The notes under the pieces were generated by a model. That model saw only the letters and a program-made list of their open reading frames with translations. It ran no database searches and was not told the DNA's origin. Shown here one piece after another: positions 1-15,303 of a stretch of DNA of 18,183 bases. Both the position numbers and the translations under genes were made by a program. The DNA is from Polaribacter sp. (GTDB lineage: Bacteria; Pseudomonadota; Gammaproteobacteria; Pseudomonadales; Cellvibrionaceae). How positions within the stretch are numbered: position 1 is the first letter of the stretch; each line of letters opens with the position of its first letter. The DNA lies in NCBI GenBank assembly GCA_964226685.1, contig CAXQRU010000078.1:1-18183 (forward strand), read 5' to 3'.

Positions 1-20
1 ACACGACGCTCTTCCGATCT
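1..20. other. Residual Illumina TruSeq-type adapter (ACACGACGCTCTTCCGATCT) at the contig terminus
   Basis: Bases 1-20 are identical to the 3' end of the standard Illumina universal adapter (…CTACACGACGCTCTTCCGATCT). Native sequence begins at base 21. Confidence 0.8.
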
Positions 21-21
21 G

Positions 22-77
22 TTACATGTAAGAAAAATAATTATTACATGTAATTTTTGTTGACATGTTACATGTAA
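22..77. promoter_or_regulatory. Three copies of the perfect 10-bp palindrome TTACATGTAA (22-31, 44-53, 68-77), a candidate operator array
   Basis: Direct reading. The copies are identical and their centres are 22 and 24 bp apart, about two helical turns. Copy 2 extends to the 12-bp palindrome ATTACATGTAAT. Copy 3 lies inside the -35/-10 spacer of the promoter below. Confidence 0.6.
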
Positions 78-87
78 TAGCTATAAT
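60..87 (+). promoter_or_regulatory. Sigma70-type promoter with TTGACA (60-65), a 16-nt spacer and TATAAT (82-87). The predicted transcription start falls at or near the ATG at 94, so the mRNA is leaderless.
   Basis: Both hexamers match consensus exactly. No Shine-Dalgarno sequence precedes the ATG at 94, and the -10 ends 6 nt before that ATG. Confidence 0.55.
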
Positions 88-93
88 CGACCT

Positions 94-714
94 ATGATTA
101 AAAAAACATCAGCCTATTATCAACGAAAATACCGCGAGCGCCTGCGAGAACAGGGGCTGGTGAAGCGCGAAGTGTGGGTTAAACCCGAGCACGTTGGGCT
201 TTTGGCGGACATTGAGAAGCAATTGAGAGATCCTTTGCTATTGGATAAACCATCGGTAGGAATCAGTCAAATGAGTGAAACACAAAAATGGACCAACGAT
301 ACCTTGCTCACCGCGCTTGCGAACAGCCCATTGGGCGATCGTATCAGCATTGAAGTGGTCGAGGGTGTAGAGCCAGCGCTCTACATTGTTATGCATGATT
401 ACGGTGATCTACCCCTATTTGCCACCATTGTTGGCGATCAGATCATTGTTGAGGCCGCGCTTTGGCCGGCTGATGCCATAGCCGATAAGGCCGCATTTAA
501 TGAGGTGGTACTAAAGACCCACAAGTATTTTCCTTTATCAACCATCAGCTTAGACACCATGAGCGACGGGGTTGATTATTACCAAATGTTTGGCGCCCTA
601 AGCGCCACATCGACCCTACCCAATGTAGTATTTGAGGTAGAAACCCTGGCTGACAACGTGATTCAAGCGACATCAGCCTATAGTGAATTTTTGAAACCAG
701 ACGCATACGCATAA
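94..714 (+). CDS. Fusion protein with an N-terminal ribbon-helix-helix-like (RepB-regulatory/Arc-like) DNA-binding domain and a C-terminal YjfI-like DUF2170 domain. Putative autoregulator of the operon.
   Basis: 206-aa ORF. The N-terminus YYQRKYRERLREQGLVKREVWVKPEH fits the [YRER..G…V.W.] pattern of small ribbon-helix-helix-like regulators. The segment from the internal MSETQKW onward (…MHDYGDLPLFATIVGDQIIVEAALWP… PLSTISL… YYQMFGALS…) matches, from memory, the motifs of E. coli YjfI/DUF2170. Its stop lies 15 nt before the next gene, which suggests translational coupling. Confidence 0.6.
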   Translation: MIKKTSAYYQRKYRERLREQGLVKREVWVKPEHVGLLADIEKQLRDPLLLDKPSVGISQMSETQKWTNDTLLTALANSPLGDRISIEVVEGVEPALYIVMHDYGDLPLFATIVGDQIIVEAALWPADAIADKAAFNEVVLKTHKYFPLSTISLDTMSDGVDYYQMFGALSATSTLPNVVFEVETLADNVIQATSAYSEFLKPDAYA

Positions 715-729
715 GCGAGGAGCGCAAAA

Positions 730-1416
730 ATGAATATTTTAAAGAAGATGATTACAGCATTGCGCGGCGGCATCAACGAAGCCGGCGAAGCCATTATTGA
801 CACCCAAGCCCTGAGAATCCTAGATCAAGAGATCAGGGATGCTTCCGAAGAGTTAAAACGCTCGAAAGATAGCTTGGCCGAGATTATTGCCAAAGAAAAA
901 CTGGCCAATCAGAAGTGCGATGTCACCAGCAAGAAAATTACAGAGCACGAAGGCTACGCGGTTAAGGCGCTAGAACAGCAAAACGAAACCTTGGCCCTAG
1001 AAGTGGCCGAGAAGATCGCCGAGCTTGAAAATCAACTCGCAAACGAGCAAACTGTCGCCCAAGAATTTGCCCAAAGCGGCAATGACCTGCGGGCCGCAAT
1101 CCTGCAGGCCGAGAACAACTTGCGCCATCTTAAGCAGCAGGTGGATACGGTCAAGGCAACAGAGAGCGTACAGCGTGCTCAAGAAGCGGTGGCCGAGCGC
1201 CATAGCGGTGCCAATAGCAAGATGCGCACAGCAATGGATTCTCTTGAGCGCATTAAAGAGAAGCAAGCACTGAAATCAGCGCAAATGAGTGCAGCCAGGG
1301 AGATGGCTAACGAAACGCCGGAGTCGTCTTTGGCAAGCAAACTGGAAGCGGCAGGCATTACCACCTCAACCAGTGCCAGCGATGTGCTTGAGCGCCTAAA
1401 AAAGAAGGCTAAGTAA
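730..1416 (+). CDS. PspA/IM30/Vipp1-family protein (ESCRT-III-like), YjfJ-like
   Basis: 228 aa. There is an N-terminal amphipathic helix (MNILKKMITALRGGINEAGEAI) and a long coiled coil. It carries the motif …VKATESVQRAQEAVAERHSG… and a tail …AAGITTSTSASDVLERLKKK that I recall from E. coli YjfJ. The ribosome-binding site GAGGAG sits 8 nt upstream. Confidence 0.8.
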   Translation: MNILKKMITALRGGINEAGEAIIDTQALRILDQEIRDASEELKRSKDSLAEIIAKEKLANQKCDVTSKKITEHEGYAVKALEQQNETLALEVAEKIAELENQLANEQTVAQEFAQSGNDLRAAILQAENNLRHLKQQVDTVKATESVQRAQEAVAERHSGANSKMRTAMDSLERIKEKQALKSAQMSAAREMANETPESSLASKLEAAGITTSTSASDVLERLKKKAK

Positions 1417-1429
1417 GGGCCAGCAATAC

Positions 1430-1454
1430 GCACCACTGACCCCAGCAGTGGTGC
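1430..1454 (+). other. Intra-operon stem-loop between the PspA-like and YqiJ-like genes (9-bp stem GCACCACTG/CAGTGGTGC, 7-nt loop). Possible partial terminator or mRNA-stability element.
   Basis: The repeat is perfect but it is followed by an A-rich tract, not a U-rich one, so it is not a canonical intrinsic terminator. Confidence 0.3.
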
Positions 1455-1484
1455 CAATAAAACAGGAATGACAGGAGGGGGGAT

Positions 1485-2195
1485 ATGTTCGCAATATTAT
1501 TAACTGACAAAATGGATGTGTTTTATAAAAACATATTGTCCTTCCCTACCATTGTTTTTAGCATACTATTGTTAATTTGCATCCTATTTTGGCTGGTAGC
1601 CATTCTAGGATTTCTCGACATCTCATTTATGGATCCCGATGTCGACGTTGGAGATGTCGGTGACATTGGAGATGTAGGAGACGTAGGCGGCGACGCCGGC
1701 CCAAGTGCTGTGGCCGGTATCATCCAGCGCTTTGGTCTCAACGGTGTACCGCTAACCATCATTATTACATCCATTTCTTTGATCGGCTGGCTCATTAGCT
1801 TCTATACCGTACACATTCTATTCCCTCTGATTCCAAGCGGCTTACTGACGTGGGTTGCCGGGGTAGGCACTCTATTAGGGGCGACCATCGGCGCCACGTT
1901 TATTACCGCCATGCTCATCAAACCTCTGCGCCCTTTGTTTAAAAAGCTTGAGGTACACCTCGACAAACGCATCGTAGGACAAACGGCCAAAGTGAGAAGC
2001 TCGCGAGTGGACCAAGCGTTTGGTGAGGCTGTTTTAGAAGATGGTGGCGCAGGCTTGATATTAAAAGTTCGCTCAGCCGATCATCAGGTCTATGGCCGAG
2101 GCGATGATGTTGTCATCATTGACTATGTCGAAGCAGATAATACCTTCAAAGTTGTTTCACTTGAGGAATTTCAATCCATGAGATCCTCTATTTAA
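1485..2195 (+). CDS. YqiJ-like inner-membrane protein with a C-terminal NfeD-like OB-fold, the partner of the flotillin
   Basis: 236 aa. The N-terminal half has several hydrophobic transmembrane segments and an acidic loop, DVDVGDVGDIGDVGDVGGD. The C-terminus (VGQTAKVRSS…GAGLILKVRS…GDDVVIIDYVEADNTFKV) is beta-rich, as in NfeD or YqiJ. The gene sits directly upstream of an SPFH/flotillin gene, the arrangement of E. coli yqiJ-yqiK. The ribosome-binding site is AGGAGG. Confidence 0.7.
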   Translation: MFAILLTDKMDVFYKNILSFPTIVFSILLLICILFWLVAILGFLDISFMDPDVDVGDVGDIGDVGDVGGDAGPSAVAGIIQRFGLNGVPLTIIITSISLIGWLISFYTVHILFPLIPSGLLTWVAGVGTLLGATIGATFITAMLIKPLRPLFKKLEVHLDKRIVGQTAKVRSSRVDQAFGEAVLEDGGAGLILKVRSADHQVYGRGDDVVIIDYVEADNTFKVVSLEEFQSMRSSI

Positions 2196-2226
2196 CCATC
2201 GTTTACTAACAAGGAGATAAAACATC

Positions 2227-2289
2227 ATGCAAACCATCACCAAAGGACAATCTCGTCCTACTCATACATTAATGGAGAACACACTATGA
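2227..2289 (+). CDS. Possible 20-codon upstream mini-ORF (MQTITKGQSRPTHTLMENTL). Its TGA stop overlaps the flotillin ATG as ATGA.
   Basis: A strong Shine-Dalgarno sequence, AAGGAG, lies 10 nt upstream. The stop overlaps the start of the next gene. No homology is claimed. It may only be a coupling or leader ORF. Confidence 0.2.
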   Translation: MQTITKGQSRPTHTLMENTL

Positions 2290-4199
2290 GCGAGTACATC
2301 CCACACCTTATGACTTTATTGATCGTCGTCGGGGTGATCTTTGTTGTCCTTTTGGGCTTCATTGCCATCGTTAAGGCTTGGTATATTAAAGTTCCTCAGG
2401 GAACCGCCTTGATTGTTAACGGCATCCGCAACATCAAAGTTAGCTTTACTGGCGCACTGGTTTACCCTGTGATCAATAAAAAGGAATTTATGAAAATATC
2501 CTTAATTACCTTGGAGGTAGATCGCCGAGGTAAGGATGGTTTGATCTGTCAGGATAATATGCGTGCGGATATTACCGTAGCATTTTATCTTCGCGTAAAT
2601 GAAACTGCAGCCGATGTATTAAAAGTTGCCAAATCGTTAGGTGCCGATCGCGCGTCAGATAAAAACGCCGTGAATGAATTATTTAATGCTAAATTTTCTG
2701 AAGCGCTAAAAACCGTGGGCAAGCAAATTGAATTTACCAAGCTGTTTGAAGATCGCTTGGAGTTTCGCGAAAAAATTGTTCAGGTCATCGGTAACGACTT
2801 AAACGGCTATATCTTGGAAGACGTAGCTATCGATTATCTTGAGCAAACCCCAAAAAGTGCGCTAGATCCAAACAATACCATGGATGCTGAAGGTATTCGC
2901 AAGATCACGGAGCTGACAGCTATTCAAAACATAACCACCAACATGCTAGAGCGCGATGAGCAACTAGCCATTAAAAAGAAAGACGTGGAAACCTATGAAG
3001 CCATGCTGGAGCTAGAGCGCCAGGAAGCCGATGCCGCCGCCAGACAAAAGCGCGAAATCGAAACGTTGAAAGCGCGAGAAGAAGCAGAAACCAAAAAAGT
3101 TCAAGAGGAAGAACGCAAAAAAGCGGAATCAGCCACTATTGCCGTTGAGCAAGATCTAGCTGTGCAAATGGAAAATCAAAAGCGTGAAATCGAAGTAGCG
3201 GAACAAAACCGTCAGCGCGCCGTAGTGATTGAAATGGAAAAAGTCACCCGGGCACGCGATCTTGAAATCGTTTCTCGCGAACGTGAAGTTGAGCTGCAAA
3301 GAATCGAGGCTGAAAAAGCCGTCGAGGTGGAAAAGAAAGAAATAGCCAACGTCATTCGCGAGCGTGTAGCAGTGGATAAAACCGTTGCTATCGAAGAAGA
3401 GCGTATTAAAGAAGTGCGTGAAGTGTCAGAGGCTGATCGCTTAAAGCAAGTCCAAGTATTAGAAGCGGAAGCACTTGCTGAACAGGCAAAAGTCAAAGAA
3501 GTGAAAGCGGCTGAAGCACAAGAAATCTCAGCCAAACATAAGGCCCTTGAAATCACAACGATTGCTCAGGCTAAGTTAGAGGCCGCGGCCAAAGAGGCCG
3601 ATGCCAAGAAGAAATTGGCTGAGGCCACCCAAGCAGAGCGTGCAGCCCCCGGTTTAGCCGATGCCAAAGTACAAGAAGCCAAAGCCGAGGCCTTAGAGAA
3701 AGAAGGTTTGGCCGAAGCGCATGTGATCAATGCCAAAGGTAGCGCGGAAGCTGAAGTCATTGCGAGCAAAGGTGATGCCCAAGCGAAAGCGGACAAAGGC
3801 ATTGGTTTGGCGCATGCTGAAGTCACTCGTGAGCAATTTAAAGCTGAAGCCGATGGCTTGGTTGAGAAATTCAATGCTATGGGCACCATGAGCGATGCCG
3901 CTAGACAACATGAGGAATTCCGCATGAGTCTTGAGACCGCGCTCAAAGAAGCACTCGCTTCAATCGACGCCGGCAAAGACATCGCGAAAGAAAATGCGGA
4001 AGTACTGGCCACTGCACTTCAAAGAGCGAAGATCGATATTGTGGGTGGTGAGGATCACTTCTTCAATAACTTTGCGAAAGCCTTGTCGATGGGTAAAGCG
4101 ATTGACGGCTTAGCAGATAAGAGCAGCATGCTGGGCTCGATTATCAGCAAATTTATTGATCGCCCAGAAGATGTGGTTGCTGAAGAATCAGCAGAATAA
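2286..4199 (+). CDS. Flotillin-like SPFH/band-7 protein (YqiK family) with an extended E/A/K-rich coiled coil
   Basis: 637 aa. An N-terminal transmembrane helix (LMTLLIVVGVIFVVLLGFIAIV) is followed by an SPFH core (…ALIVNG… GKDGLICQDNMRADITVAFYLRVNE…). A long EA/KA-repeat coiled coil and a flotillin-type C-terminus follow. Confidence 0.85.
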   Translation: MSEYIPHLMTLLIVVGVIFVVLLGFIAIVKAWYIKVPQGTALIVNGIRNIKVSFTGALVYPVINKKEFMKISLITLEVDRRGKDGLICQDNMRADITVAFYLRVNETAADVLKVAKSLGADRASDKNAVNELFNAKFSEALKTVGKQIEFTKLFEDRLEFREKIVQVIGNDLNGYILEDVAIDYLEQTPKSALDPNNTMDAEGIRKITELTAIQNITTNMLERDEQLAIKKKDVETYEAMLELERQEADAAARQKREIETLKAREEAETKKVQEEERKKAESATIAVEQDLAVQMENQKREIEVAEQNRQRAVVIEMEKVTRARDLEIVSREREVELQRIEAEKAVEVEKKEIANVIRERVAVDKTVAIEEERIKEVREVSEADRLKQVQVLEAEALAEQAKVKEVKAAEAQEISAKHKALEITTIAQAKLEAAAKEADAKKKLAEATQAERAAPGLADAKVQEAKAEALEKEGLAEAHVINAKGSAEAEVIASKGDAQAKADKGIGLAHAEVTREQFKAEADGLVEKFNAMGTMSDAARQHEEFRMSLETALKEALASIDAGKDIAKENAEVLATALQRAKIDIVGGEDHFFNNFAKALSMGKAIDGLADKSSMLGSIISKFIDRPEDVVAEESAE

Positions 4200-4212
4200 T
4201 CTTGCAAGCCCT

Positions 4213-4232
4213 GCACCGGCTCTCGCCGGTGC
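4213..4232 (+). other. Stem-loop (GCACCGGC-tctc-GCCGGTGC) between the flotillin and the giant gene. Candidate attenuator or processing site.
   Basis: The inverted repeat is a perfect 8 bp. No U-tract follows it. Confidence 0.3.
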
Positions 4233-4267
4233 TCATTAAAACTGAGTAAAACGTAGAGGGAGAAAGT

Positions 4268-7200
4268 ATGTCGTCTCAGGATAAATCACAAGCACAAGAC
4301 GATAACGCAATTGTTAATGAAGCGGTTGCTCAAGGTGGCGCATACGAGGTCATTCGCCAACGCCTAGTTGACCAAGCTCAGCAGCTACATAAACACACTC
4401 AAAGCTTAAACGAGGCGCGCATTAGCGAGTTCGGCTCGCCAGACATGAGTGTTTTGGCTCGAGTGCGCGTGCGCACGGAAAATAATTGTGTCGCTAGAGA
4501 TATTGTAGAAGTGGGTCAGCACTTACTGTTTGGTTACAATGTTTTTATAGGGCTCAAGCGCGAGACTAAAGTCGATGATGTTTTTTCTCTTTACACAATT
4601 ACCCAAAACGATGATCAGTACGAACTAACCCCCGTTACCGCCAGCAACACATTTTTAACGGATCCAAGATTTGTCAGCGATTTCGATGAACTCTATCGTT
4701 ACTACAAACACACCAAACTCATCCAGTTATCAGTTCGCCATGGCAAATTGTTAGCGGGTTTTCAAATTGGTGAGAAACTCGAAGATGTTCGGGTATTTCG
4801 TTGGTCAGTATCTGCTGACGGCAAAGATATTAGCTATATTGATAATCGGGGTGAGCGTGACCTTGCCCTACCCCCACCCTACGATTTTGAGTGGGTTAAT
4901 ACGACTCGCGAAGATATTGTGCACAGCCGTCATCCGCATATCAATATTGAAGACACCTTGTTTATCAGTAATAACAAGGGCTTTTTGAATATAAAAATCG
5001 AAGACAATACCGAAGAAGGCATGTCAGTTTTTAGAGAAAAAGTTGAAGATGATACTCAGTCTCTTGATGACCTCTCTGTCAGCTATGCCATAACTGGCAA
5101 GTTAATTTTATTGAAAATATTACCGTATCGAGAGCAAATCTCTCGATACTTTGTTTACAACACGTTGACTCAAACCATTCAACGCATTGATGCCATTGGT
5201 CAATCTTGTGTGCAGCTTCCTGAAGATCACGGCATTATTTTCCCGGGCGGCTATTATTTAGAAAGTGGCGAACACAAAACCTTTGATGAGCAATATACAG
5301 GTTTAATGTTTAAACGCAGTTTTCGATCGCCTAACGGAGAGGATGTATTGTACATTTTCTATGAACCCGTAGAAGGTGTTGTCGGCTTGTTTGCCTACAA
5401 TATGATTAATAAAACCTTAAAAAATCCCATTTATGGTCATGGTTACGCACAGTTTGATAATGGTTTAATCATTATTTTTTCATCGGAAGGCGAGCCAACT
5501 CGCGTTCACCCCATGCAATTATGGCAAACACCTTTTTTTAGCGCCGAGTACGCCAGCGCCCTACCCGATAGCCAAACACCACTTGGTAAAATTGGCAACG
5601 CTGAACTCGTTCGCGGGATTTCGGATTTATTTAGCATTTGTCGAATTGTCGACAATCAATCGGTCTCCATGCGTTTATATGAAGAGCTAACTAGAATTAC
5701 TCAAAAAATATTTGATGACTACTACTGGCTGACTCAAGATAACTTCAATGATATCAAAGATTCGGTCAATCTAATTACTGCAACGGCTGAACTGGTCATT
5801 GATGAGTTCGAAAAAGTTGAGAGCATTCGACAGCAATCGGCCAAGACTTTACAAAAAGCGCAAGAAGAGCAAGAAAAAATTATTAGCCAAGCAAGGCCCG
5901 ATAATTGGGAAAGCGCCGAACAATATGTTAATGCGTTAAGAAAGATTCGCCAGCAACGGGGTCACTTATCGACAATTTCTGATTATCGATACATCGACAA
6001 GAAAAAAATTAGTGATTTAGATCAAGAACTGGTAAAAATTGAAGAGAAATTAAGTGAAAAAACCGTTACCTTCTTGGTGGGAGAAGAGGCTTTAACGCCG
6101 TATTTCACAAAAGTAGAACAATTAGATCACGGCGTAGAAACAGCCAACACGATTGCAGAATTGACACCCATCATTGAAGCCATTGAAGGTACCACGGCAG
6201 GACTCGATGTACTTTCTGAGTTGATGGGCACGCTACAAATAGATGATGCCACCGTGCGCACACGCATCATTGACTCGATTTCTGAAGTCTATGCCAAACT
6301 CAACCAAAGCAAAGCTCAGGCGAATCATCGTAGAAAATCTCTGGGCTCACAAGAAGCGGTTGCTCAATTTAGTGCTCAATTTAAATTGTTTTCTCAAAGC
6401 ATTACAAACGCTCTTGGCTTGGCAACCACACCAGACAAATGTGATGAACAATTATCACGCTTACTTGCTCGGTTAGAAGAGTTAGAAAGCCAATTCAGTG
6501 ACTTTGAAGATTACCTGGCCGATATTATTACCAAAAGGGAAGAAGTGTATCAGGCCTTCGAGGCCCATAAACAACAATTACTCGATGAAAGGCAACGAAA
6601 ATCGCAAGCGGTGATGGAGGCGACCAATCGCATTTTATCGAGCATTGAAAAACGCTCACTAAAATTCACCGACCCCGATGAACTCAATACTTATTTTGCG
6701 TCCGATAGCTTGGTCGCCAAAGTGCGAGAATTTGTTGAGCGCTTAAGAGATTTGAACAGTGCGGTTCAAGCCGATGATGTCGAGGCTCGTTTTAAATCCA
6801 TTAAAGAGCAATCCATTCGCGCCCTTCGAGACAAGACTGATATTTATGAAGAGGGAGGCAATGTGATTAAACTTGGGCCTCGCCATAAATTCAGCGTGAA
6901 TACCCAAGAGCTTGATCTCACCCTTTTCCCGAAGGAGGGGGTCATGAATGTGCATTTGACGGGCACCGATTTCTATGAACCCATTAAAAATGAAGATTTG
7001 GACTCTTTAAAAGCCTATTGGGGTTTGGCGGTCGAATCGGAAACCCCTCAGCTCTATCGAGCTGAATATCTTGCTGGCTCCATTATCCGTGCTGCTCAAA
7101 ACCAAACCGATGGTTTAACGATAGAAATACTCAATACCGCTTTGCTAGATGATAACCATTTAAGCAAGTTAGTTCGAGATTTTGCCACGCCGCGCTATAA

Positions 7201-9700
7201 AGAAGGCTACGAAAAAGGCATTCACGATCACGATGCCACCTTGCTATTGAAAAAATTATTACCGGCTATTGCCAGTGCTGACCTACTCACGTTTGACCCG
7301 ACCAGCCGAGCCTTGGCTCAAGTGTTCTGGGCGAGCATAGAGCAAAGAAATATTTCAGGTATTGCTCACCGAGCTTGGATTGAACAAGCTCAATCAGCCG
7401 TGCAGTTAAATGAAATTTTTGCCAGCCACAAAGCATTGGATTTATTGATTGATGATGTAGAAACGGCGTTAAAGCTGTTTTTAGAGAGACACCCCTTAGC
7501 ACTCGACACCTACCATCAACGCCGAGCGGCGCACTATTTAGTGTTAGAACTTGGGCGCGATAGACTGGACTTTATCACTAGCAAATACGCGGAAAATTTA
7601 GCGGGAGAACTCAAACGTTCGTTAACGGATGAGCAGTGGCGACAGTATCAAAAATCATTAGATAATTTAAGCGGCCAGCCCAACCGGCGTTGGCAATTAA
7701 CCAACACTTGGCTCAATGCCTTAATTGAGAACAAACAACTCGGTCGCCTAGCTCACTACTTATCTGAGGCCATAGCCTTTTTAATTATTCGCGAACCCTT
7801 GAGTCGCCGCTCAGTTGAAGTCGATTTAGAAATTGATGTTCAGGGTTTACTGGGTAATCATAGTCGAATTGTGGATCGAGGCTTACTGCTATCTGTTGAT
7901 AATTTCTTGCAGCGTTTCGAGCAACATTGCACGGAGGTAATCCCCTCTTATCATCGCTATTTAGCATTGCGCCAACAAATCGCCGAGCGCGAACGCAAAC
8001 AGTTAAGGCTAGACTCCTTTAAGCCTAAGCCCTTAAGTTCATTTGTTCGCAACCGGCTCATTAATGAAGCGTATCTACCGATTATCGGGGATAACCTTGC
8101 CAAACAAATGGGCACTGTGGGTGAGAGCAAACGAACCGATTTGATGGGATTATTAATGATGATCTCGCCTCCTGGTTACGGTAAAACCACATTGATGGAA
8201 TACGTTGCCAGCCGCTTGGGTTTGATTTTCATGAAAATCAACTGCCCCTCCTTGGGTCACGATGTAACCTCGCTAGATCCTGCACAAGCGCCAAATGCAA
8301 CCGCCAAACAAGAGTTGAATAAAATCAATCTGTCCTTTGAGATGGGTAATAACGTTATGCTTTATCTGGATGATATTCAGCACACTCATCCAGAATTTTT
8401 GCAAAAATTTATTTCATTGTGTGATGGTACGCGGCGAATTGATGGTGTTTGGAACGGCGAGACCAAAACCTATGATATGCGCGGGCGTAAATTTTGTGTG
8501 GTGATGGCAGGCAACCCCTATACCGAGTCGGGCGAGGTTTTCAAAATTCCTGATATGCTTGCCAACCGCGCTGACATTTATAATCTGGGTGATATCTTAG
8601 GCGGCATGGATGAACAATTTGCCTTGAGTTATATTGAAAACGCACTCACTTCCAACCCTGTGCTCGCACCACTTGCACTGAGAGAATTGAGCGATGTCTA
8701 TAAACTGGTTCGCATGAGCCAGGGTGAGAATGTCCCTAGCACGGATTTAAGCTACAGTTATTCGGGTGCTGAGATTAACGAGATTACACAAGTCTTGAAA
8801 AAATTATTTGTGATCCAAGATGTCGTGCTCAAAATTAATCAGCAATATATTGCCTCAGCCGCGCAAGATGATAAGTATCGGACCGAACCGGCCTTTAAGT
8901 TACAGGGTAGTTATCGAAACATGAATAAAATGGCTGAAAAAGTTTCGGCCGTTATGAACGATGAAGAACTGATGGCGATGATTGCCGATCACTATTTGGG
9001 CGAGGCACAACTATTAACAACCGGCGCCGAGGCGAATTTATTAAAGCTTTCTGAACTTAGAGGCAATATGACACAGGAGCAGCACGCTCGCTGGCAAGCC
9101 ATTAAAGCCGACTTCCTGCGCAATAAAGCCATGGGCGGCGATGAAACCGATACTGGCAACAAAATGGTTGTGCAGCTTAATGATATCGTCAATAGCTTAA
9201 AACAGTTGGGTGTGGCAACGCAAAGTAGCGGGCAATCATTGACGAGCGTGGTGGAGTCGATCAATCATCAAAATAGCGAATCGCAACAGGCGGCTATTGA
9301 CCAATTAAGCAATATTGTAAAAGGTTTGCAGCAGCTAGGAAAAATCACCAATAGTAACGGCAAATCCCTAGCCGCACTGGTTGAAAACCTAGAAAAAGAA
9401 GAGCCTTTATTGCTGGATGAAGCGACTCAACCGCAGTCTGAAAGTTCACAAATGGTTGAAGCACTGGTTCAGGCTTTGGAAAAAATTGAAACCGTTGGCG
9501 AGGGTGCGCCCAATGAGATTGCACATTCTCTAGCGCAATTGACCCAGGAAATCGATCAAATCGCCAAGCCCTTGATCAAGAAGATGGATAAAAAATTATC
9601 GGTTGATTTGAGAACTTACTTTAGAGTCACTGAATTATCCAAAAAAATTATTGAAATGAATCAAAAATCGCCGGCAAAAAAGGCAACCAAAGGAGAGTAG
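4268..9700 (+). CDS. Giant multidomain protein (1810 aa) with a beta-rich N-terminal region, a long helical middle, a C-terminal AAA+ ATPase core (AAA_5/MoxR-like) and C-terminal tandem repeats. Family not recognised.
   Basis: The 5433-nt ORF has no stops and a ribosome-binding site GGGAGA. Walker A is MMISPPGYGKTTLMEY (nt ~8159-8197). Walker B is VMLYLDDIQ (nt ~8357-8380). Sensor-1-like VVMAGNP and an Arg-containing LANRADIY follow. The C-terminus has about three degenerate ~43-aa repeats (…IVNSLKQLGVATQSSGQSLTSVVESI / …IVKGLQQLGKITNSNGKSLAALVENL…). Confidence 0.8.
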   Translation: MSSQDKSQAQDDNAIVNEAVAQGGAYEVIRQRLVDQAQQLHKHTQSLNEARISEFGSPDMSVLARVRVRTENNCVARDIVEVGQHLLFGYNVFIGLKRETKVDDVFSLYTITQNDDQYELTPVTASNTFLTDPRFVSDFDELYRYYKHTKLIQLSVRHGKLLAGFQIGEKLEDVRVFRWSVSADGKDISYIDNRGERDLALPPPYDFEWVNTTREDIVHSRHPHINIEDTLFISNNKGFLNIKIEDNTEEGMSVFREKVEDDTQSLDDLSVSYAITGKLILLKILPYREQISRYFVYNTLTQTIQRIDAIGQSCVQLPEDHGIIFPGGYYLESGEHKTFDEQYTGLMFKRSFRSPNGEDVLYIFYEPVEGVVGLFAYNMINKTLKNPIYGHGYAQFDNGLIIIFSSEGEPTRVHPMQLWQTPFFSAEYASALPDSQTPLGKIGNAELVRGISDLFSICRIVDNQSVSMRLYEELTRITQKIFDDYYWLTQDNFNDIKDSVNLITATAELVIDEFEKVESIRQQSAKTLQKAQEEQEKIISQARPDNWESAEQYVNALRKIRQQRGHLSTISDYRYIDKKKISDLDQELVKIEEKLSEKTVTFLVGEEALTPYFTKVEQLDHGVETANTIAELTPIIEAIEGTTAGLDVLSELMGTLQIDDATVRTRIIDSISEVYAKLNQSKAQANHRRKSLGSQEAVAQFSAQFKLFSQSITNALGLATTPDKCDEQLSRLLARLEELESQFSDFEDYLADIITKREEVYQAFEAHKQQLLDERQRKSQAVMEATNRILSSIEKRSLKFTDPDELNTYFASDSLVAKVREFVERLRDLNSAVQADDVEARFKSIKEQSIRALRDKTDIYEEGGNVIKLGPRHKFSVNTQELDLTLFPKEGVMNVHLTGTDFYEPIKNEDLDSLKAYWGLAVESETPQLYRAEYLAGSIIRAAQNQTDGLTIEILNTALLDDNHLSKLVRDFATPRYKEGYEKGIHDHDATLLLKKLLPAIASADLLTFDPTSRALAQVFWASIEQRNISGIAHRAWIEQAQSAVQLNEIFASHKALDLLIDDVETALKLFLERHPLALDTYHQRRAAHYLVLELGRDRLDFITSKYAENLAGELKRSLTDEQWRQYQKSLDNLSGQPNRRWQLTNTWLNALIENKQLGRLAHYLSEAIAFLIIREPLSRRSVEVDLEIDVQGLLGNHSRIVDRGLLLSVDNFLQRFEQHCTEVIPSYHRYLALRQQIAERERKQLRLDSFKPKPLSSFVRNRLINEAYLPIIGDNLAKQMGTVGESKRTDLMGLLMMISPPGYGKTTLMEYVASRLGLIFMKINCPSLGHDVTSLDPAQAPNATAKQELNKINLSFEMGNNVMLYLDDIQHTHPEFLQKFISLCDGTRRIDGVWNGETKTYDMRGRKFCVVMAGNPYTESGEVFKIPDMLANRADIYNLGDILGGMDEQFALSYIENALTSNPVLAPLALRELSDVYKLVRMSQGENVPSTDLSYSYSGAEINEITQVLKKLFVIQDVVLKINQQYIASAAQDDKYRTEPAFKLQGSYRNMNKMAEKVSAVMNDEELMAMIADHYLGEAQLLTTGAEANLLKLSELRGNMTQEQHARWQAIKADFLRNKAMGGDETDTGNKMVVQLNDIVNSLKQLGVATQSSGQSLTSVVESINHQNSESQQAAIDQLSNIVKGLQQLGKITNSNGKSLAALVENLEKEEPLLLDEATQPQSESSQMVEALVQALEKIETVGEGAPNEIAHSLAQLTQEIDQIAKPLIKKMDKKLSVDLRTYFRVTELSKKIIEMNQKSPAKKATKGE

Positions 9701-9714
9701 TATGAGTTATTTAG

Positions 9715-9985
9715 TTAAGGAACCTCTGATCAAGTCTAGCGTGCCTCTGGCCTAGCAGGTTTGTTCGAGATCTAGGCGCTTCTTTGCAGCAATGTCTAGA
9801 CCTTGCAAAAAGGAGCAACAACGATATCGGACAAACCTGCAGGCCCCGAAGGGCGTGGCCAAAACGTCCATATGCTGCGTTGAACTTCTTGCAAAGGACT
9901 AAGGCCATTAGACTGCGAAGTCCGCCTTGCCTATGAACGTTTTGACTCACGCAGAGCCGGCTAGACTTGATCAGAGGTTCCTTAA
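9715..9985. mobile_element. 271-bp element bounded by perfect 26-bp terminal inverted repeats (TTAAGGAACCTCTGATCAAGTCTAGC at 9715-9740, and its reverse complement at 9960-9985). MITE-like or a structured non-coding RNA.
   Basis: Direct reading. The two repeats match 26/26. The interior has nested complementary segments, for example GCAGGTTTGTTCGA (about 9755-9768) paired with TCGGACAAACCTGC (about 9827-9840). It has no ORF. It lies 14 nt after the stop of the giant gene. Confidence 0.55.
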
Positions 9986-10194
9986 GTTATAAATCCATTC
10001 AATGTTTTGCTAACGATGGCCGTTTGCTAGTTGATGAACTGGATGAATTATTATCCATCGCCTTGCGCGACGGCGTCGTTGATGAAGACGAACAGCGCGT
10101 GCTGAACAATATCATCGATCGATTAAATCCTGATGAACTCACCACAGACATGCTGGATAAAATTGCCGAGGTAAAAAAAGCCATTAATGCCTAA
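9967..10194 (+). CDS. Small acidic ORF with a TerB-like motif (…DGRLLVDELDELLSIALRDGVVDEDEQRVLNNIIDRL…). No ATG start; it begins inside the right inverted repeat. Either a 3' gene remnant or a small protein with a non-canonical start.
   Basis: The only in-frame start candidates are TTG and GTG codons, and there is no clear ribosome-binding site. The D/E-rich helical repeat resembles TerB/DjlA-N-type domains from memory. The stem-loop with the 12-bp stem follows. Confidence 0.3.
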   Translation: MIRGSLSYKSIQCFANDGRLLVDELDELLSIALRDGVVDEDEQRVLNNIIDRLNPDELTTDMLDKIAEVKKAINA

Positions 10195-10201
10195 TCGACC
10201 A

Positions 10202-10232
10202 AATAAGGCTACCCATTTTCGGTAGCCTTATT
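10202..10232. terminator. Bidirectional intrinsic terminator between convergent genes: a perfect 12-bp stem AATAAGGCTACC/GGTAGCCTTATT with loop CATTTTC
   Basis: Direct reading. The stem contains A/T-rich ends that supply U-tracts on both strands. It lies between the 3' ends of 9967-10194 (+) and dprA (-). Confidence 0.7.
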
Positions 10233-10246
10233 CATCTTAATTCACG

Positions 10247-11338
10247 TTAAACTCGCTCAAAACCCCAACGACTGTAACGGATCAAGCCTTTTAATTCCAA
10301 CATCATTAAGCCCGAAGCCAGCTCACTGGAATCTAAGCAAGTCATATCGGTTAATAGCTCCAAAGATACGGTATCAAATCCCATAGCATCGTAAATGGTT
10401 TGCTCGTTCGGCGCTAAACCTTCGCTGGATCGTGCCTCGTGAGCAAAGGCCTTAATGGGACTCAATACATCCTCCAAATGCTCGGCAATATCCTCTGGCG
10501 ACTCGGCCAAAATGGCGCCCTGGCGAATTAATTCGTGTGGCCCTTTAGACTGTGGATTTTGGATGGAACCTGGCAAGGCAAACACTAAGCGATTTTGCTC
10601 ATTGGCCAAACGCGCGGTAATTAGTGAGCCGCTTTTAATGGCAGCCTCCACGACAATGGTGGCACAACTTAAGCCGCTAATGATGCGATTACGCTCAGGG
10701 AAGTGGCCGGCACGGGGCGGCGTGGTCGGTAAAAACTCGCTCACCAACGCACCCCCATGTTCTAAAATTTCCTCAGCCAAACGCTCGTGACGCTTGGGGT
10801 ACACTGAGTCCACGCCCGTTGCCATCACCGCAATGGTGGGCTTGCGCTGATCCACCACGGCCTGATGGGCGGCACCATCAATACCGATCGCCAAACCACT
10901 GGTGACCACAAAACCGCTCAGAGCCAATGATTGCGCAAAATAGCGCGCGTTGCGCGCGCCGCCGGCACTGGGGTGGCGCGATCCCACAATGGCCAACTGC
11001 GGCAAGGTTAATGGGCTAACATCGCCGCGCACAAATAACACCAAGGGCGGTCGCACGGTTTGTGCCAACAAGGGCGGGTAATGTTCACTGCCGTAAGCGA
11101 CCAGTGTGGCTCCAAAGCGTTCTAACTTTTCCATCACCGCCTGAGCTTGGCGATGCAATGGGCTGGCAGCCCCTGCCGCTTGATAATTGCCTAAGGCTTG
11201 TTTGGCTTTGTCATTGATGGTGAGGGCCTGTGGGTCAGCGTTTAAGATCGCTTCAGGGGTTTGAAAGTGCTCAAGCAGTTGCCAAGCGGTATTGCGGCCA
11301 ACGCCGGGGAGTAATTGCAATAATAAATAGGGGGACAT
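10247..11338 (-). CDS. dprA: DNA processing protein A (DprA/Smf)
   Basis: 363 aa. It has the DprA Rossmann-like core (…LAIVGSRHPSAGGARNARYFAQSLALSGFVVTSGLAIGIDGAAHQAVV… TIAVMATGVDSVYPKRH… ALPGSIQNPQSKGPHELIRQGA…). The ribosome-binding site is AAGGA. Its GC content is visibly higher than that of the flanking genes. Confidence 0.9.
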   Translation of the reverse strand: MSPYLLLQLLPGVGRNTAWQLLEHFQTPEAILNADPQALTINDKAKQALGNYQAAGAASPLHRQAQAVMEKLERFGATLVAYGSEHYPPLLAQTVRPPLVLFVRGDVSPLTLPQLAIVGSRHPSAGGARNARYFAQSLALSGFVVTSGLAIGIDGAAHQAVVDQRKPTIAVMATGVDSVYPKRHERLAEEILEHGGALVSEFLPTTPPRAGHFPERNRIISGLSCATIVVEAAIKSGSLITARLANEQNRLVFALPGSIQNPQSKGPHELIRQGAILAESPEDIAEHLEDVLSPIKAFAHEARSSEGLAPNEQTIYDAMGFDTVSLELLTDMTCLDSSELASGLMMLELKGLIRYSRWGFERV

Positions 11339-11598
11339 AGTTCATCCTTGAATTAAATTAAATCACCAGTGTAACCAAAAATTCTGGTTCGCTCAATTGG
11401 TATCTAGGCCCTTTCTCAAAATTCAATTGGCTCGCTTGGGAGACTCTTCACATGTCACAAAACTGTCATAAAAAAGTCATCCCCATCAGGTAGAATGTAA
11501 AGTGTAGTACCACCTCAAGCCACCTTTTCGTTTTCGTACTACTTAGGCTTACTCTCAACCCTCCCTATCTATACAAGGAATTTTTTCAAGGAGAAATC

Positions 11599-13665
11599 AT
11601 GAAACCTGAAACCGCAGCTGGTGTCAGGGTAGATACTCTGCACCAACAAGATCCTCCTACGTATTTAGGGGATCTAGCCAAAAACCAACTTGCCGTCAGA
11701 GGCCCTGTAAGAGCCAATGACCCAAGAGCACTTAACCAACTCCACAACCGCATGGAGAAATTTGCACCATTGGGTAGCGAAACGGATCGAGCCACGGCTC
11801 CCAGTAACTTTGTTAGTGGTGTCTTTGCTATCGCAGCGACAACTCTGGCTGCCGTTACTCTGCCGGTGCCAGCGTTTGCGGTAGCATCGGTGGGTCTTTT
11901 AGCTCGCTCTTACGTTTCACAACGCGCAGAAATGCGCAAGAAACTATTGGCTAGCAATAAAGACTCGGTCAATGCTTTCCAGCGAATGAAGGCCGCAAGG
12001 ACTTCAAGAGCTGAAGCTAAGACTCAAGGCCTAGCGTTTAGCCTCAAGAGTTGCTCAAAGATAATGGCTTGGCGACAAGTCAGAATCAGTGCGGCGAGTA
12101 TACCCTTGCTTACAGCTATTGGCTTGGGTATTGGCAGCGCCGCTGGCACCATGGGCTTATCGCTGGTGGGAATAGCCGCTGTGGCTGCTATCTCCTTGGC
12201 CGTGAGCTTGGCCGCTCAAGCTTTAGCAGCCTCCAAAGCTGACAAAGCCGCGCTCGAAGCTGAAGTACAACAAGAAGCGCTTCAACAGTATTCTCTTGGG
12301 TTACCCACCCACGGTGAGAATGGAGAAATCCTGCCTCACTCAGACAATGAGAATATCAAAGAAGTGCCCGAGGCGCGCCGAGCCTACCTAGTAGACAAGG
12401 TCGTTCGAGAGCTTAACCGCAACCCCGCCATTGTAGCGCCACCACCGGCTACCATTGACAGGGCTCCTTCTACCGATGATGACCAGTATTCATTGACCCT
12501 GGATGAGGATGGAGCAATCCTACCCAACCCACGACCAGTGAATATTATCGGCAACCCTGACAATCTAGTCCCAGATGATGGGTTTATTACGTTTGAAGGG
12601 GAGCAGTATGGGGATCCCGTTGGAGATGATCCAGATCCTCAAGTGGGTGCTCTTCCTGCCGGTGCATTTCCTGTGGGAGCGTTAATTGGCGGAGCCGTTC
12701 AGTCTGTGGTTTCTGACCACAGTTCTGCTGGAGCAAGAGGCAATGCCTCAAGTGTGGGTACTGTGGCCAGTGAACGGACACAAAAGCCATTTCGGGGGGG
12801 ATTTTTCAAAAGCCTACAGGTGTTTGCGCGTTCGCACACACGCCTCTTAGGCTTTGGAATGAATCCTTTTAAGGAACCCAGTGAAAATGACTTGGTCTCT
12901 TACCGAAATGCGGTACACCGCTCCAACCAGGTCGCCAATCGCTTTACCGATAATGGTAAACGCTTTGGTGCCTATGTGGGTGCGGGTGCCGGGGCTTTTG
13001 GCGCCGTTGGTGCTGCGGGTATTTGGTTAAAACACGGTAGTGATCAAGATTTCGAGTTTGATGGTGCCCATCGGTTATTTGGCCCATTAGGTGGAATCTT
13101 GTCGGCGATATCAAGCTGTTACAGTTTGTTCGCCTCCTCGGATGTAAAGCCTGTTGAACTTAGCGATAAGCTCAACAGTACTCTACAACCAAGGCGCTAC
13201 CAAGCGAGTCCAGAGCAACTTGACAGGGTCAACCTAATCAAGAGCTGGGGCAAGTGTAAACCATCGCTCAATGAGCGGCGCAAAGCCGCGGGCATTAACG
13301 TGGCTACGGCCGCAGCCTTAACCGCTTTGACGGTGGCGTCAATACCCGCTGGTGGCATTCCCATTGCCATTGTGGGTTTTGTTGCGATTGGCACTGCGGT
13401 TGCGAATATGGCGTCTTCGACCTATCTAGCAGGTTGGCGTTACAATAAGGCGGTGATCAAACAGAAATGTTTTGATGATTGCGTTAAGTTGGCGGCCCAG
13501 GGGCGGCTTTTTACAGGTCGGGAGTATACTCCTGAAGCTCGTAACAAGCTCAAATCTTGGGCAAATCCGAAAGGCGGACCTCTGAGTTTTAAAGAGGTGC
13601 GACTTGAGGCTTTGGATGCCGAACGTCATATTAATAAGCTGCGTTCTCAACTGCTGATTCGCTAG
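11599..13665 (+). CDS. 688-aa hypothetical protein with several Gly/Ala-rich hydrophobic (glycine-zipper-like) segments and a Pro/Asp-rich linker. No family recognised.
   Basis: The ORF is long and free of stops. The ribosome-binding site AAGGAG lies 6 nt upstream. Its hydrophobic segments include IAATTLAAVTLPVPAFAVASVGLLA, LLTAIGLGIGSAAGTMGLSLVGIAAVAAISLAVSLAAQALAA, AYVGAGAGAFGAVGAAGIWL and VATAAALTALTVASIPAGGIPIAIVGFVAIGTAVANMA. A strong terminator follows. Confidence 0.7.
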   Translation: MKPETAAGVRVDTLHQQDPPTYLGDLAKNQLAVRGPVRANDPRALNQLHNRMEKFAPLGSETDRATAPSNFVSGVFAIAATTLAAVTLPVPAFAVASVGLLARSYVSQRAEMRKKLLASNKDSVNAFQRMKAARTSRAEAKTQGLAFSLKSCSKIMAWRQVRISAASIPLLTAIGLGIGSAAGTMGLSLVGIAAVAAISLAVSLAAQALAASKADKAALEAEVQQEALQQYSLGLPTHGENGEILPHSDNENIKEVPEARRAYLVDKVVRELNRNPAIVAPPPATIDRAPSTDDDQYSLTLDEDGAILPNPRPVNIIGNPDNLVPDDGFITFEGEQYGDPVGDDPDPQVGALPAGAFPVGALIGGAVQSVVSDHSSAGARGNASSVGTVASERTQKPFRGGFFKSLQVFARSHTRLLGFGMNPFKEPSENDLVSYRNAVHRSNQVANRFTDNGKRFGAYVGAGAGAFGAVGAAGIWLKHGSDQDFEFDGAHRLFGPLGGILSAISSCYSLFASSDVKPVELSDKLNSTLQPRRYQASPEQLDRVNLIKSWGKCKPSLNERRKAAGINVATAAALTALTVASIPAGGIPIAIVGFVAIGTAVANMASSTYLAGWRYNKAVIKQKCFDDCVKLAAQGRLFTGREYTPEARNKLKSWANPKGGPLSFKEVRLEALDAERHINKLRSQLLIR

Positions 13666-13683
13666 CATCAGCTTCTACCATCA

Positions 13684-13725
13684 GCATCACACCCCTCCAA
13701 AAGGTGTGGTGCTGTTTTTTCTTTT
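13684..13725 (+). terminator. Rho-independent terminator (GCATCACACC…GGTGTGGTGC stem with one mismatch, then TGTTTTTTCTTTT)
   Basis: Direct reading. A GC-rich hairpin is followed by a T-run 18 nt after the stop at 13665. Confidence 0.75.
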
Positions 13726-13876
13726 GTGGACAGGCACGATGCAAGGGATCTTTAAAAATATAAAGATGAACTAAAGGTAAAGGTCGGGGACAGGCATCAC
13801 TGAAAAATCTTTACGAGTAATTTTGAGGAGTCAGCAAACAGTAGCAAAGCCCATCCATAGGCTATCTATTTTTTGA

Positions 13877-14686
13877 TCAAAAACCAGCCACGCCCATGCT
13901 ATGGCGCTTAATCTCAGTAATTCTCTCGACCAAAAAATTGCGCTTACGATAAGATTGGCATAAGCCCATTTTGCGATAAATATTTTTTTGATGGGTTTTG
14001 AGCGTATTAACGGATTTGTTCAACTCCTTGCTGACACTTTCACGATCCCCTGACTTCGAATAAGCAATCGCCACTTTGGCCTCTTCTGAGGTCAACGAGT
14101 ATCGATCAATCAAGGTCGCCCCGATCACTTGCTCCTCGATACAATGGGTAAATTTTGGGTTTTTCAAAATACCCCACCGAGCAGAGCGCTGAATATGAAT
14201 GGCCACTCGATTCAAAGTATCCATCGCTTCGTGAGTCACGCTATTTGGGTCAACCAATAGGCTTAAGGTGGTATAACAATTACCGTATTCAAAAAGGCGC
14301 AGCACAATGTAGTCCTCGACTTGAGCTTCTAACTCAACGCGACCACGAACCAAAGAGCGGCTGTACACCTTAAATTTGCTATTTTTATCAAAACTCAAGG
14401 TGCCAGAGTTTAACTGCAAGTTAACCTGAGCCCAGACATCCAGTTCGCCGAAATACTCGTTGTAACGCTGGACAAAATCGTGCTCCATATTGACCAAAAA
14501 AGAATGCTCAAAAAAGCCCTGATCCAGCAACACTTCACCGGTTTTCATGTTGCGATGCAAAATAGCCGCTTTGCCGCCAGAAAACAAAGAACACAAGTCT
14601 TGCAAGACGATATGCCAATGGCTAGGTTTATCGGCTGCCTGATAAATGCTATCAATAAGATGATTAATATTTTTTTCTGAAATCAT
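13877..14686 (-). CDS. LuxR/GerE-family transcriptional regulator with an uncharacterised ~190-aa N-terminal domain
   Basis: The C-terminus …LTSEEAKVAIAYSKSGDRESVSKELNKSVNTLKTHQKNIYRKMGL… fits the LuxR-type helix-turn-helix. The N-terminal domain is neither a receiver nor an obvious autoinducer-binding domain. The ORF opens with a GTG at 14695, but the first ATG is at 14686 (MISEKN…). Confidence 0.75.
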   Translation of the reverse strand: MISEKNINHLIDSIYQAADKPSHWHIVLQDLCSLFSGGKAAILHRNMKTGEVLLDQGFFEHSFLVNMEHDFVQRYNEYFGELDVWAQVNLQLNSGTLSFDKNSKFKVYSRSLVRGRVELEAQVEDYIVLRLFEYGNCYTTLSLLVDPNSVTHEAMDTLNRVAIHIQRSARWGILKNPKFTHCIEEQVIGATLIDRYSLTSEEAKVAIAYSKSGDRESVSKELNKSVNTLKTHQKNIYRKMGLCQSYRKRNFLVERITEIKRHSMGVAGF

Positions 14687-15155
14687 AATTACCACTGTTT
14701 TTCTTATTTCGGTTAAACAATCACCAGCACTACGAGTATCAATTCGTAGATAGATGCAGTTGGAAAAATTTAAGTGATAAAAAATGCCAAAATGTGAATA
14801 AAGTCACACTTTTTGTGATTTTTGCGGGGAACTACCAAGGAACAGCGGGACAATTGCCAAGCTTACCAACCTAATACCACAAAATAACTTAACACTCAGC
14901 TCTAGAATGATTGCCAAAGCAATGAAGGTTATCGTTATGAAAACTTATCTCTGCCAAAATAGAGAGGCTAAGCCAACGGTTTTCTTTTTAGGAAACAGCA
15001 ACCTATCAAGAACGATAATACTGCTCGAACAGCAGAACTTGTGAAAACTGAGTCAGCCGAAGCTAGGTGCCACTCGTGACTCGCAGGCACCAAATTGGCA
15101 CGCAATATACACGACAACTGTTAAGTGTTCAACATTTCAACTGTAATATTACGGT

Positions 15156-15183
15156 TTGCTTTGTCAGAAAAAGCCTCTATACT
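15156..15183 (+). promoter_or_regulatory. Candidate sigma70 promoter (TTGCTT, 16-nt spacer, TATACT) about 120 nt upstream of the 15304 gene
   Basis: Hexamer match only. It lies in a 590-bp AT-rich divergent intergenic region. Confidence 0.25.
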
Positions 15184-15303
15184 CGACAATGCTCAACCAT
15201 AGTTGGGCATTTTTCAAACTGAGTTTCACCTTGCCAAGCCACCTCGGTGGAGAAACTCGCATCTCTGATGCTGGCATAAACGATCATTTTGAAAGGATAT
15301 AAA

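Follow-up and report, generated by a model that had tools for sequence, protein, structure and literature searches.

A flotillin-linked giant ATPase and a PspA module in a Cellvibrionaceae ortholog of the Pseudomonas aeruginosa bac operon, with a putatively autorepressed promoter

The first five genes of an 18,183-nt stretch of DNA (hereafter the window: contig CAXQRU010000078.1, positions 1 to 18,183, of assembly GCA_964226685.1, named Polaribacter sp. and placed by GTDB in the Cellvibrionaceae) are a conserved membrane-stress operon, orthologous to the bac operon (bacA-bacE) of Pseudomonas aeruginosa. In order, they encode a BacA-like DUF2170 protein, a PspA-family protein, a YqiJ-like membrane protein, a flotillin-like SPFH protein, and a giant ATPase (Table 1). 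We posit that window positions 22-9700 hold two modules, with the BacA-like protein repressing its own operon and the ATPase acting at the SPFH scaffold, and we assign a probability of roughly 0.6 to this reading as a whole.

Genomically, it is the linkage between the ATPase and the flotillin-like and YqiJ-like genes that is constant. With the giant protein as seed, a scan of genomes gave 571 confirmed matches, of which the best 80 loci (48-69% identity; Gammaproteobacteria, Betaproteobacteria, Zetaproteobacteria, and one Longimicrobium) were analyzed by searching the window's proteins against six-frame open reading frames (ORFs), with 69 loci having enough upstream DNA to be informative. The YqiJ-like, flotillin-like, and giant genes were adjacent and in this order in 69/69 informative loci, and in 50 of the 69 the DUF2170 and PspA genes also stood in front, with all five genes in the same order, so that the neighborhood pointed out in the initial annotation of this DNA proved to be conserved; the 11 truncated loci were consistent with this order as far as their sequence extends. 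The DUF2170-PspA pair was missing in 19/69 loci, including those of Alteromonadaceae, Psychromonas, Psychrobacter, Xenorhabdus, Pragia, and a zetaproteobacterium, and the three-gene core without PspA was also present in Streptomyces and Deinococcus (megaplasmid records). The constant genomic partner of the ATPase is the flotillin/YqiJ pair, not PspA, which could redirect experiments toward the proteins to which the ATPase is wedded. None of the genes downstream of the operon in the window (dprA, a 688-aa ORF, a LuxR-like gene, and a 232-aa ORF) lay beside it in any of the 80 loci and, since none of them recurs, the conserved block consists of exactly these five genes. Relatives often have further genes 3' of the giant gene, one for a rhomboid protease in 27 loci, one for a PLD/HKD hydrolase in 30, and one for a zinc-ribbon protein in 16, and none of these three follows position 9700 in the window. 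On the Pseudomonas megaplasmid pQBR103 (L086, NC_009444.1 86428-103329), the YqiJ-like, SPFH, and giant genes come immediately after a rhomboid gene and after a DUF2491-DUF350-DUF1190-glutathionylspermidine synthase module, which is the yjfKLMC-type polyamine module found after yjfIJ in Escherichia coli; its presence beside the core on the plasmid and after yjfIJ in E. coli indicates that the modules recombine.

The layout of five contiguous, co-directional genes and the families given to them in the initial annotation were borne out by the ORFs and by Pfam, BLASTP, and profile matches. The genes lie head to tail with gaps of 15, 68, 90, and 68 nt, GGAG-type Shine-Dalgarno (SD)-like ribosome-binding sequences precede genes 2-5, and a consensus scan of the intergenic gaps found no terminator-like site. 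The gene 1 product matches Pfam DUF2170 (E 1.6e-47) and scores 288.5 bits, just below the cutoff of 300, against the NCBIfam equivalog "biofilm formation regulator BacA", and the gene 2 product matches Pfam PspA_IM30 (E 3.2e-44) and E. coli YjfJ (37% identity, E 9e-37, BLASTP). The gene 3 product had no BLASTP match to E. coli YqiJ and required profile comparison, in which the family profile (24 orthologs) aligned to YqiJ over 146 columns (hhalign probability 91.8%, E 7e-7) with the same architecture; it is thus only remotely homologous, as judged from sequence, and the window's own member matched neither Pfam NfeD nor YqiJ_OB. BLASTP aligns the gene 4 product with E. coli YqiK over 482 residues at 30% identity (E 6e-43), and its N-terminal 230 aa match Band_7/SPFH above threshold (32 bits against a cutoff of 23.6). 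The full-length protein gave no Pfam match even at E 5, probably through the HMMER bias filter acting on its E/A/K-rich coiled coil, which makes this miss a trap for automated annotation, and at its C-terminus the Pfam "Flot" domain reached only E 0.59, against 6e-41 for E. coli YqiK. A transmembrane (TM) scan predicted segments in the flotillin-like and YqiJ-like proteins (about three in the latter) and none in the giant ATPase; a PDB sequence search with the flotillin-like protein returned nothing useful, and an Rfam scan of the window gave no match. In E. coli K-12, as the initial annotation had stated, the homologous pairs are kept apart, with yqiJK at 3.19 Mb and yjfIJ at 4.41 Mb (1.2 Mb apart), no giant ATPase beside yqiK, and yjfIJ followed by the yjfKLMC polyamine-type module.

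Table 1 Coordinates of the operon, its promoter region, and the domains of the giant protein.
Feature	Window positions	Strand	Length	Description
Gene 1, bacA-like (DUF2170)	94-714	+	206 aa	Basic N-terminal domain (residues 1-50), disordered linker, DUF2170/type III secretion system (T3SS)-chaperone-like domain (62-202)
Gene 2, PspA/IM30-family	730-1416	+	228 aa	YjfJ/BacB type, bacterial ESCRT-III homolog (Pfam, BLASTP)
Gene 3, YqiJ-like (NfeD-type) membrane protein	1485-2195	+	236 aa	About 3 TM segments, acidic loop, C-terminal beta-rich domain
Gene 4, flotillin-like SPFH protein	2286-4199	+	637 aa	TM 11-29, SPFH 35-183, long E/A/K-rich coiled coil, divergent C-terminus
Gene 5, giant cytosolic ATPase	4268-9700	+	1810 aa	BacE/PA3728 ortholog; named "DNA repair ATPase" in databases
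Operator region (proposed)	22-77			Three exact TTACATGTAA palindromes at 22-31, 44-53, and 68-77; overlapping ACATGT at 62-67
Sigma-70-type promoter	60-87	+		TTGACA 60-65, 16-nt spacer, TATAAT 82-87; 12/12 consensus match
DUF3686 domain of giant protein	4385-5725	+	residues 40-486	Pfam, 645 bits
AAA+ core of giant protein	8126-8587	+	residues ~1287-1440	Pfam AAA and AAA_5 matches
AAA+ motifs of giant protein				Walker A PPGYGKT 1301-1307; Walker B LYLDD 1365-1369; sensor-1 N1416; R1434

The initial annotation had taken the arrangement to be undescribed, which it is not. Ravi et al. 2024 (mSystems, PMC11237479) described operons of CesT/Tir[DUF2170]-PspA, a TM-Band7-coiled coil-flotillin protein, a novel AAA+ ATPase, and a YqiJ/YuaF 3TM protein, with a PLD hydrolase sometimes added and with shortened operons lacking PspA being more widespread; the window has the same domain set, and our 80-locus count reproduces the wider spread of PspA-less operons. 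For this class, that paper names neither a promoter nor an operator or regulator, makes no mention of an N-terminal domain on the DUF2170 protein, and does not put figures to the linkage. In P. aeruginosa, bacABCDEF (PA3732-PA3727, PA14_16140-16200) are linked by reverse transcription PCR as six genes in PA14 (PMC10948618), and the first five have the same order as in the window; together with the gene order in relatives, this upholds the view that the genes form one conserved unit. A bacA transposon mutant raised BacB-F 6- to 13-fold, and crystallized BacA (8Q8O) adopts a T3SS-chaperone fold (PMC10948618). PA3731 is required for biofilm formation, swarming, rhamnolipid production, and virulence and accumulates upon osmotic shock (PMC2587700), PA3728-PA3732 rise in concert upon infection by two virulent phages (PMC12041424), and an AlphaFold2 screen gave a BacA-BacB interaction probability of 0.981 (PMC13092808); in this species, the operon class influences both biofilm formation and virulence. 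Co-transcription, de-repression in the bacA mutant, and phage induction are taken from these papers, next to the gene identities, the conserved gene order and motifs, and the conserved and exclusive operator observed here. A dedicated membrane repair or remodeling system, as proposed in the initial annotation, agrees with the osmotic-shock (PMC2587700) and phage (PMC12041424) responses, and membrane stress or remodeling stays the most reasonable reading, but the part of that proposal in which PspA is the ATPase's partner is not supported, given the PspA-less loci. Compared with the bac operon, the window lacks bacF (PLD/HKD; optional according to Ravi et al.), its operon ending at 9700 ahead of an element resembling a miniature inverted-repeat transposable element (MITE), and the ortholog of P. 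paraeruginosa shares the window's operator/promoter layout with an ATPase of 54-55% identity. With the class already known, the points of remaining interest are the role of a very large, conserved, flotillin-linked ATPase and the model of its regulation.

Upstream of gene 1, the promoter and operator at 22-87 went unnoticed in the initial annotation, and nothing that can be seen in the window answers to its phrase "under one regulator". The three exact TTACATGTAA palindromes there are the only exact matches in the 18-kb window; they overlap a strong sigma-70 promoter and are proposed to be a repression site. The -10 hexamer ends 6 nt 5' of the ATG at 94 and gene 1 has no SD-like sequence, which together make a leaderless mRNA probable for this gene, so that gene 1 is probably translated without a leader. 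The same design recurs in relatives: 51 aligned promoters share the order box, TTGAC, box, TAnnnT, 6-8 nt, and ATG, and 49 of the 51 lack an SD-like core. Across the related loci (1.82 Mb), there are 44 occurrences of the paired-box pattern [TC]ACATGT[AG]-N12-19-[TC]ACATGT[AG], each one (44/44) at the start of a DUF2170 gene, and these occurrences cover 40 of the 50 five-gene loci, the remaining ten having variant boxes or variant spacings; the pattern search over the 1.82 Mb found no other site and no box pair upstream of operons without DUF2170-PspA. The Xanthomonadales group has altered boxes (TTTCATGTAAG) together with altered N-terminal residues in the DUF2170 protein (SSAHYQR to SSTEYVR), a co-variation that hints at a link, although phylogeny confounds it. 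No sigma-54 -24/-12 element turned up in a regular-expression search of the DNA 5' of the operon in any locus, with the window's own upstream DNA being cut short. The window promoter matches the sigma-70 consensus perfectly, in contrast to the sigma-54 promoter of the published P. aeruginosa model. A highly conserved sigma-70 promoter, palindromic operators, and a probably leaderless first gene make a simple, testable model that differs from the one in the literature. A literature search on TTACATGTAA found no functional information, and the conserved operator and the DNA-binding-like N-terminal domain described below have apparently not been described before. The contig itself opens with a sequencing artifact, ACACGACGCTCTTCCGATCT at window positions 1-20, which we identify as a 3' portion of the Illumina TruSeq read-1 adapter; the operon's real upstream DNA is therefore lacking, and the 73 nt between the contig end (after the adapter) and the first ATG hold the promoter and all three palindromes.

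The putative reader of these boxes is the BacA-like protein. At 206 aa it exceeds E. coli YjfI (133 aa), which aligns to residues 66-200 only (34% identity, BLASTP) and has no N-terminal domain, and the BacA crystal construct (PDB 8Q8O, 146 aa) matches residues 62-202 only, likewise without that domain. The N-terminal 50 residues are strongly basic, with the consensus KSSAHYQREYRRRLREQGLVKKEVWILPENA..L...EK.LR and with 9 invariant and 11 near-invariant residues across 33 sequences. The best 120 of 1,356 homologs of the protein each cover at least 96% of the query, hence the N-terminal region too, and a phmmer search with the domain against 1.84 billion proteins found it confined to the BacA-like family (73 representatives), with no bridge to a known DNA-binding family; a PDB sequence search with it returned nothing useful. 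In 22 of the 33 sequences the domain weakly matches Pfam MazE-like (PF11455; best E 1e-3, residues 11-29 only), an antitoxin-type domain presumed to bind DNA. Structurally, AlphaFold2 models the N-terminal domain as helix, extended segment, and helix, joined by a disordered linker to a confidently modeled chaperone-like domain that superposes on 8Q8O at a TM-score of 0.90-0.93, with YbjN/AmyR, ExsC, and other T3SS chaperones as the next Foldseek matches; Foldseek on the whole model was uninformative for the N-terminal domain, with the chaperone-like domain dominating the matches. Published P. aeruginosa BacA (16 kDa; the 146-aa construct) appears to start at an internal Met, as in P. paraeruginosa (L031:5713-5892) the conserved frame opens about 60 codons earlier, directly after the operator/promoter, and the sigma-54 site proposed 5' of the annotated bacA start may lie within or near coding sequence. 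The published BacA work used a protein without the conserved basic domain. We infer that the DUF2170 protein is a dimeric two-domain autorepressor of its operon, a reading with which three findings agree: de-repression upon bacA mutation, the complex predicted for BacA and BacB, and the lack of any other conserved regulator gene. Beside operons without PspA, a neighbor search found no conserved regulator or partner gene.

The giant protein consists of a DUF3686 domain, spectrin-like helical bundles, a middle domain without known counterpart, and one AAA+ module. Pfam places DUF7902 at residues 607-691 and the single AAA+ module at about 1290-1470, and Ravi et al. read the N-terminal region as beta-propeller repeats (PMC11237479). 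The family is large: of 8,000 candidates scored, over 4,464 reach E <= 1e-5. Its AAA+ motifs are not degenerate, a possibility that the initial annotation had named as refuting its view: the Walker A motif SPPGYGKTT and the motif PDMLANRAD are present in 80/80 loci, the Walker B motif hhhDDIQH in at least 72/80, and sensor-1 N1416 and R1434 are invariant among 26 aligned homologs. An AlphaFold2 model of residues 611-1810 (overall predicted local distance difference test score, pLDDT, 70.5) has long bundles of helices, a middle domain (about 880-1250) folded with high confidence (pLDDT 85-92), and a poorly ordered C-terminal tail. Neither a PDB profile search nor the literature searched added to this, the former giving nothing useful and the latter leaving DUF3686 unmentioned and PA3728 in gene lists only. 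Within the C-terminal tail (window ~9170-9460, residues ~1635-1730), we noted by eye two similar segments of about 30 residues, NDIVNSLKQLGVATQSSGQSLTSVVESINHQ and SNIVKGLQQLGKITNSNGKSLAALVENLEKE, whose similarity suggests a recent internal duplication in a poorly conserved and poorly modeled region.

Mechanistically, we posit a core module, spread across phyla, in which the 3-TM YqiJ/NfeD-type protein and the membrane-anchored SPFH/flotillin protein would form a scaffold for the cytosolic 1810-aa ATPase. A role at the SPFH scaffold is favored because the ATPase's constant genomic partners are the flotillin-like and YqiJ-like genes; the ATPase would dock on the flotillin/YqiJ assembly and, through ATP binding and hydrolysis, could assemble, remodel, or dismantle the scaffold or its clients, working in a manner comparable to the HflK/C-FtsH pair. 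In both HflK/C-FtsH and the mitochondrial SLP2-PARL-YME1L complex, SPFH scaffolds work with AAA+ enzymes, and the latter includes a rhomboid. The likeness lies in an SPFH membrane scaffold tied genetically to an AAA+ protein, and the rhomboid gene that follows the ATPase in 27 relatives echoes SLP2-PARL-YME1L; unlike FtsH and YME1L, however, the giant ATPase has no TM segment or protease domain, is unrelated in sequence, and has about 1250 unique N-terminal residues. The second module, an add-on in Proteobacteria, pairs the DUF2170 protein with a PspA-family, ESCRT-III-like effector that would be recruited to the same membrane sites. Here, the basic N-terminal domain of BacA would bind the TTACATGTAA palindromes over the sigma-70 promoter, its T3SS-chaperone-like C-terminal domain would bind the PspA-like protein and so couple repression to PspA, and relocation of PspA to damaged membrane would change repression by a partner switch such as that of PspA-PspF or ExsC, with gene 1 probably being read from a leaderless mRNA. 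The Psp (PspF-PspABC) and ExsC cascades offer the precedent of a stress-titrated PspA that also binds a transcription regulator and of a chaperone fold like that of the BacA C-terminal domain. The classical Psp regulon was itself considered and rejected, as the genes for PspF, PspB, and PspC are not in the window and no sigma-54 element lies in 21-93; it differs further in having a sigma-54 activator where the window has a putative repressor at a sigma-70 promoter.

Several points weigh against this two-module, autorepressed reading. The 80 loci are the closest of the 571 matches and the sample therefore covers near relatives. The contig ends at the promoter and, while no GG-N10-GC element occurs in window 21-93, the P. 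aeruginosa papers propose sigma-54. Co-occurrence of the operator and bacA is partly by construction, the operator being in bacA's own promoter. For the N-terminal domain, PF11455 scores are all at or below 18.6 bits, against a gathering threshold of 22, and the monomer model reaches a modest pLDDT of 53-73. As to the giant protein, its biochemical activity is predicted from conserved ATPase motifs, the AAA+ core is modeled with moderate confidence (pLDDT about 75-83), and Foldseek against the PDB gave weak AAA+ matches, the best being MoxR-type NorQ (E 5e-4). Its Walker B motif has Asp-Asp (DD) rather than Asp-Glu (DE), resembling the DDIQ of DnaA, and by that analogy hydrolysis may be slow and switch-like rather than that of a motor.

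A regulator encoded elsewhere could bind the operator, and in the fullest form of this possible, though rather improbable, alternative the DUF2170 protein is a post-transcriptional chaperone or anti-regulator whose N-terminal domain serves protein-protein or membrane contacts. The DNA-binding assignment draws on sub-threshold similarity, the T3SS-chaperone-like ExsC and YbjN regulate without binding DNA, and the authors of the BacA paper favor regulation via protein-protein interaction (PMC10948618). Yet no transcription-factor gene is conserved beside the operon, the strongly basic N-terminal domain is restricted to the family just as the operator is restricted to the promoter, the altered Xanthomonadales boxes accompany altered N-terminal residues, and palindromic sites suit a dimeric chaperone-fold protein, all of which speaks against this alternative.

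Rather than at the SPFH scaffold, the giant ATPase might work as a functional Vps4 counterpart, mainly disassembling or remodeling PspA-like polymers, with flotillin and YqiJ only marking the site. A PspA-family protein (ESCRT-III superfamily) does share one operon with the ATPase in 50/69 loci, Ravi et al. also propose ATP-dependent remodeling by analogy (PMC11237479), and the niche is open, since a 2025 review finds bacteria to be without a Vps4-like ATPase and the control of PspA polymerization unresolved (PMC7619361). Against this stand the 19/69 loci, and those of Actinomycetota and Deinococcota, in which the ATPase has no neighboring PspA, while it was never found without the flotillin-like and YqiJ-like genes, and we consider such a counterpart unlikely, although the giant protein could still act on PspA polymers. 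Actual membership in the Vps4 family, to which the analogy drawn in the initial annotation might be taken to extend, is rejected, and we do not favor the analogy as a mechanism: Pfam found no MIT domain in the giant protein, the Walker B motif is DD and not the DE of the katanin-spastin-Vps4 clade, PspA is a dispensable neighbor, and the Foldseek order after NorQ is dynein, Lon, ClpA/C, Skd3, PspF, and RuvB, with no Vps4, katanin, or spastin ATPase module among the top 50 PDB matches.

Phage induction raises the further question of an infection-triggered anti-phage system of the abortive-infection type, which we regard as very improbable. PA3728-PA3732 are up in all phage-infected P. aeruginosa samples (PMC12041424), and large ATPases with sensor-like N-termini are common among defense systems, but PADLOC gave only coiled-coil noise on PspA, the giant gene was found in 0/50,697 phage records and 13/72,556 plasmid records (mostly megaplasmids) and has a stable chromosomal context and a wide distribution, and induction by phage is expected of a membrane-stress ("phage shock") response. 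That the giant protein is a DNA repair ATPase with a meaningful dprA neighbor, as the Pfam DUF3686 description, the NCBI product names, and a dprA gene 547 nt downstream might suggest, can be dismissed almost entirely, as the name appears to derive solely from that Pfam description, Pfam, NCBIfam, and PDB profile searches found no nuclease, helicase, or DNA-binding domain in the protein, the literature searched leaves DUF3686 unmentioned, dprA is convergent and a neighbor in 0/80 loci, and the conserved partners are membrane proteins.

A bolder version of the scaffold reading, which we offer tentatively and hold to be doubtful, is that the giant DUF3686-AAA+ protein is a new membrane-scaffold remodeler acting on flotillin/NfeD cages and also turning over PspA polymers where a PspA-family gene joins the operon, with BacA a two-domain autorepressor, not recognized before, that reads TTACATGTAA and senses free PspA. 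If true, the giant ATPase would be a non-homologous bacterial answer to Vps4. How bacteria control PspA/Vipp1 polymers and flotillin scaffolds without Vps4 is still an open question (PMC7619361), for which operons of this class are the most obvious starting point.

Downstream of the operon, the window holds a 688-aa ORF with several hydrophobic segments (11599-13665, forward strand) and a 232-aa ORF (15289-15987, forward strand), neither of which matched Pfam, NCBIfam, or PADLOC or lay beside the operon in the 80 relatives. Closer to the operon, 15 nt after the giant gene's stop codon, begins a 271-bp element (9715-9985) with perfect 26-bp inverted repeats (TTAAGGAACCTCTGATCAAGTCTAGC) and arms that reach 39 nt at 85%, which looks like a MITE; it is within this element that the locus is broken in an independent Logan assembly. 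Its right inverted repeat overlaps the start of a 75-aa ORF (9967-10194, forward strand) with a weak TerB-like match (E 0.012), which may be a gene truncated by the MITE-like insertion. Between this ORF and the convergent dprA lies a hairpin with a perfect 12-bp stem and a 7-nt loop (10202-10232), a candidate bidirectional terminator.

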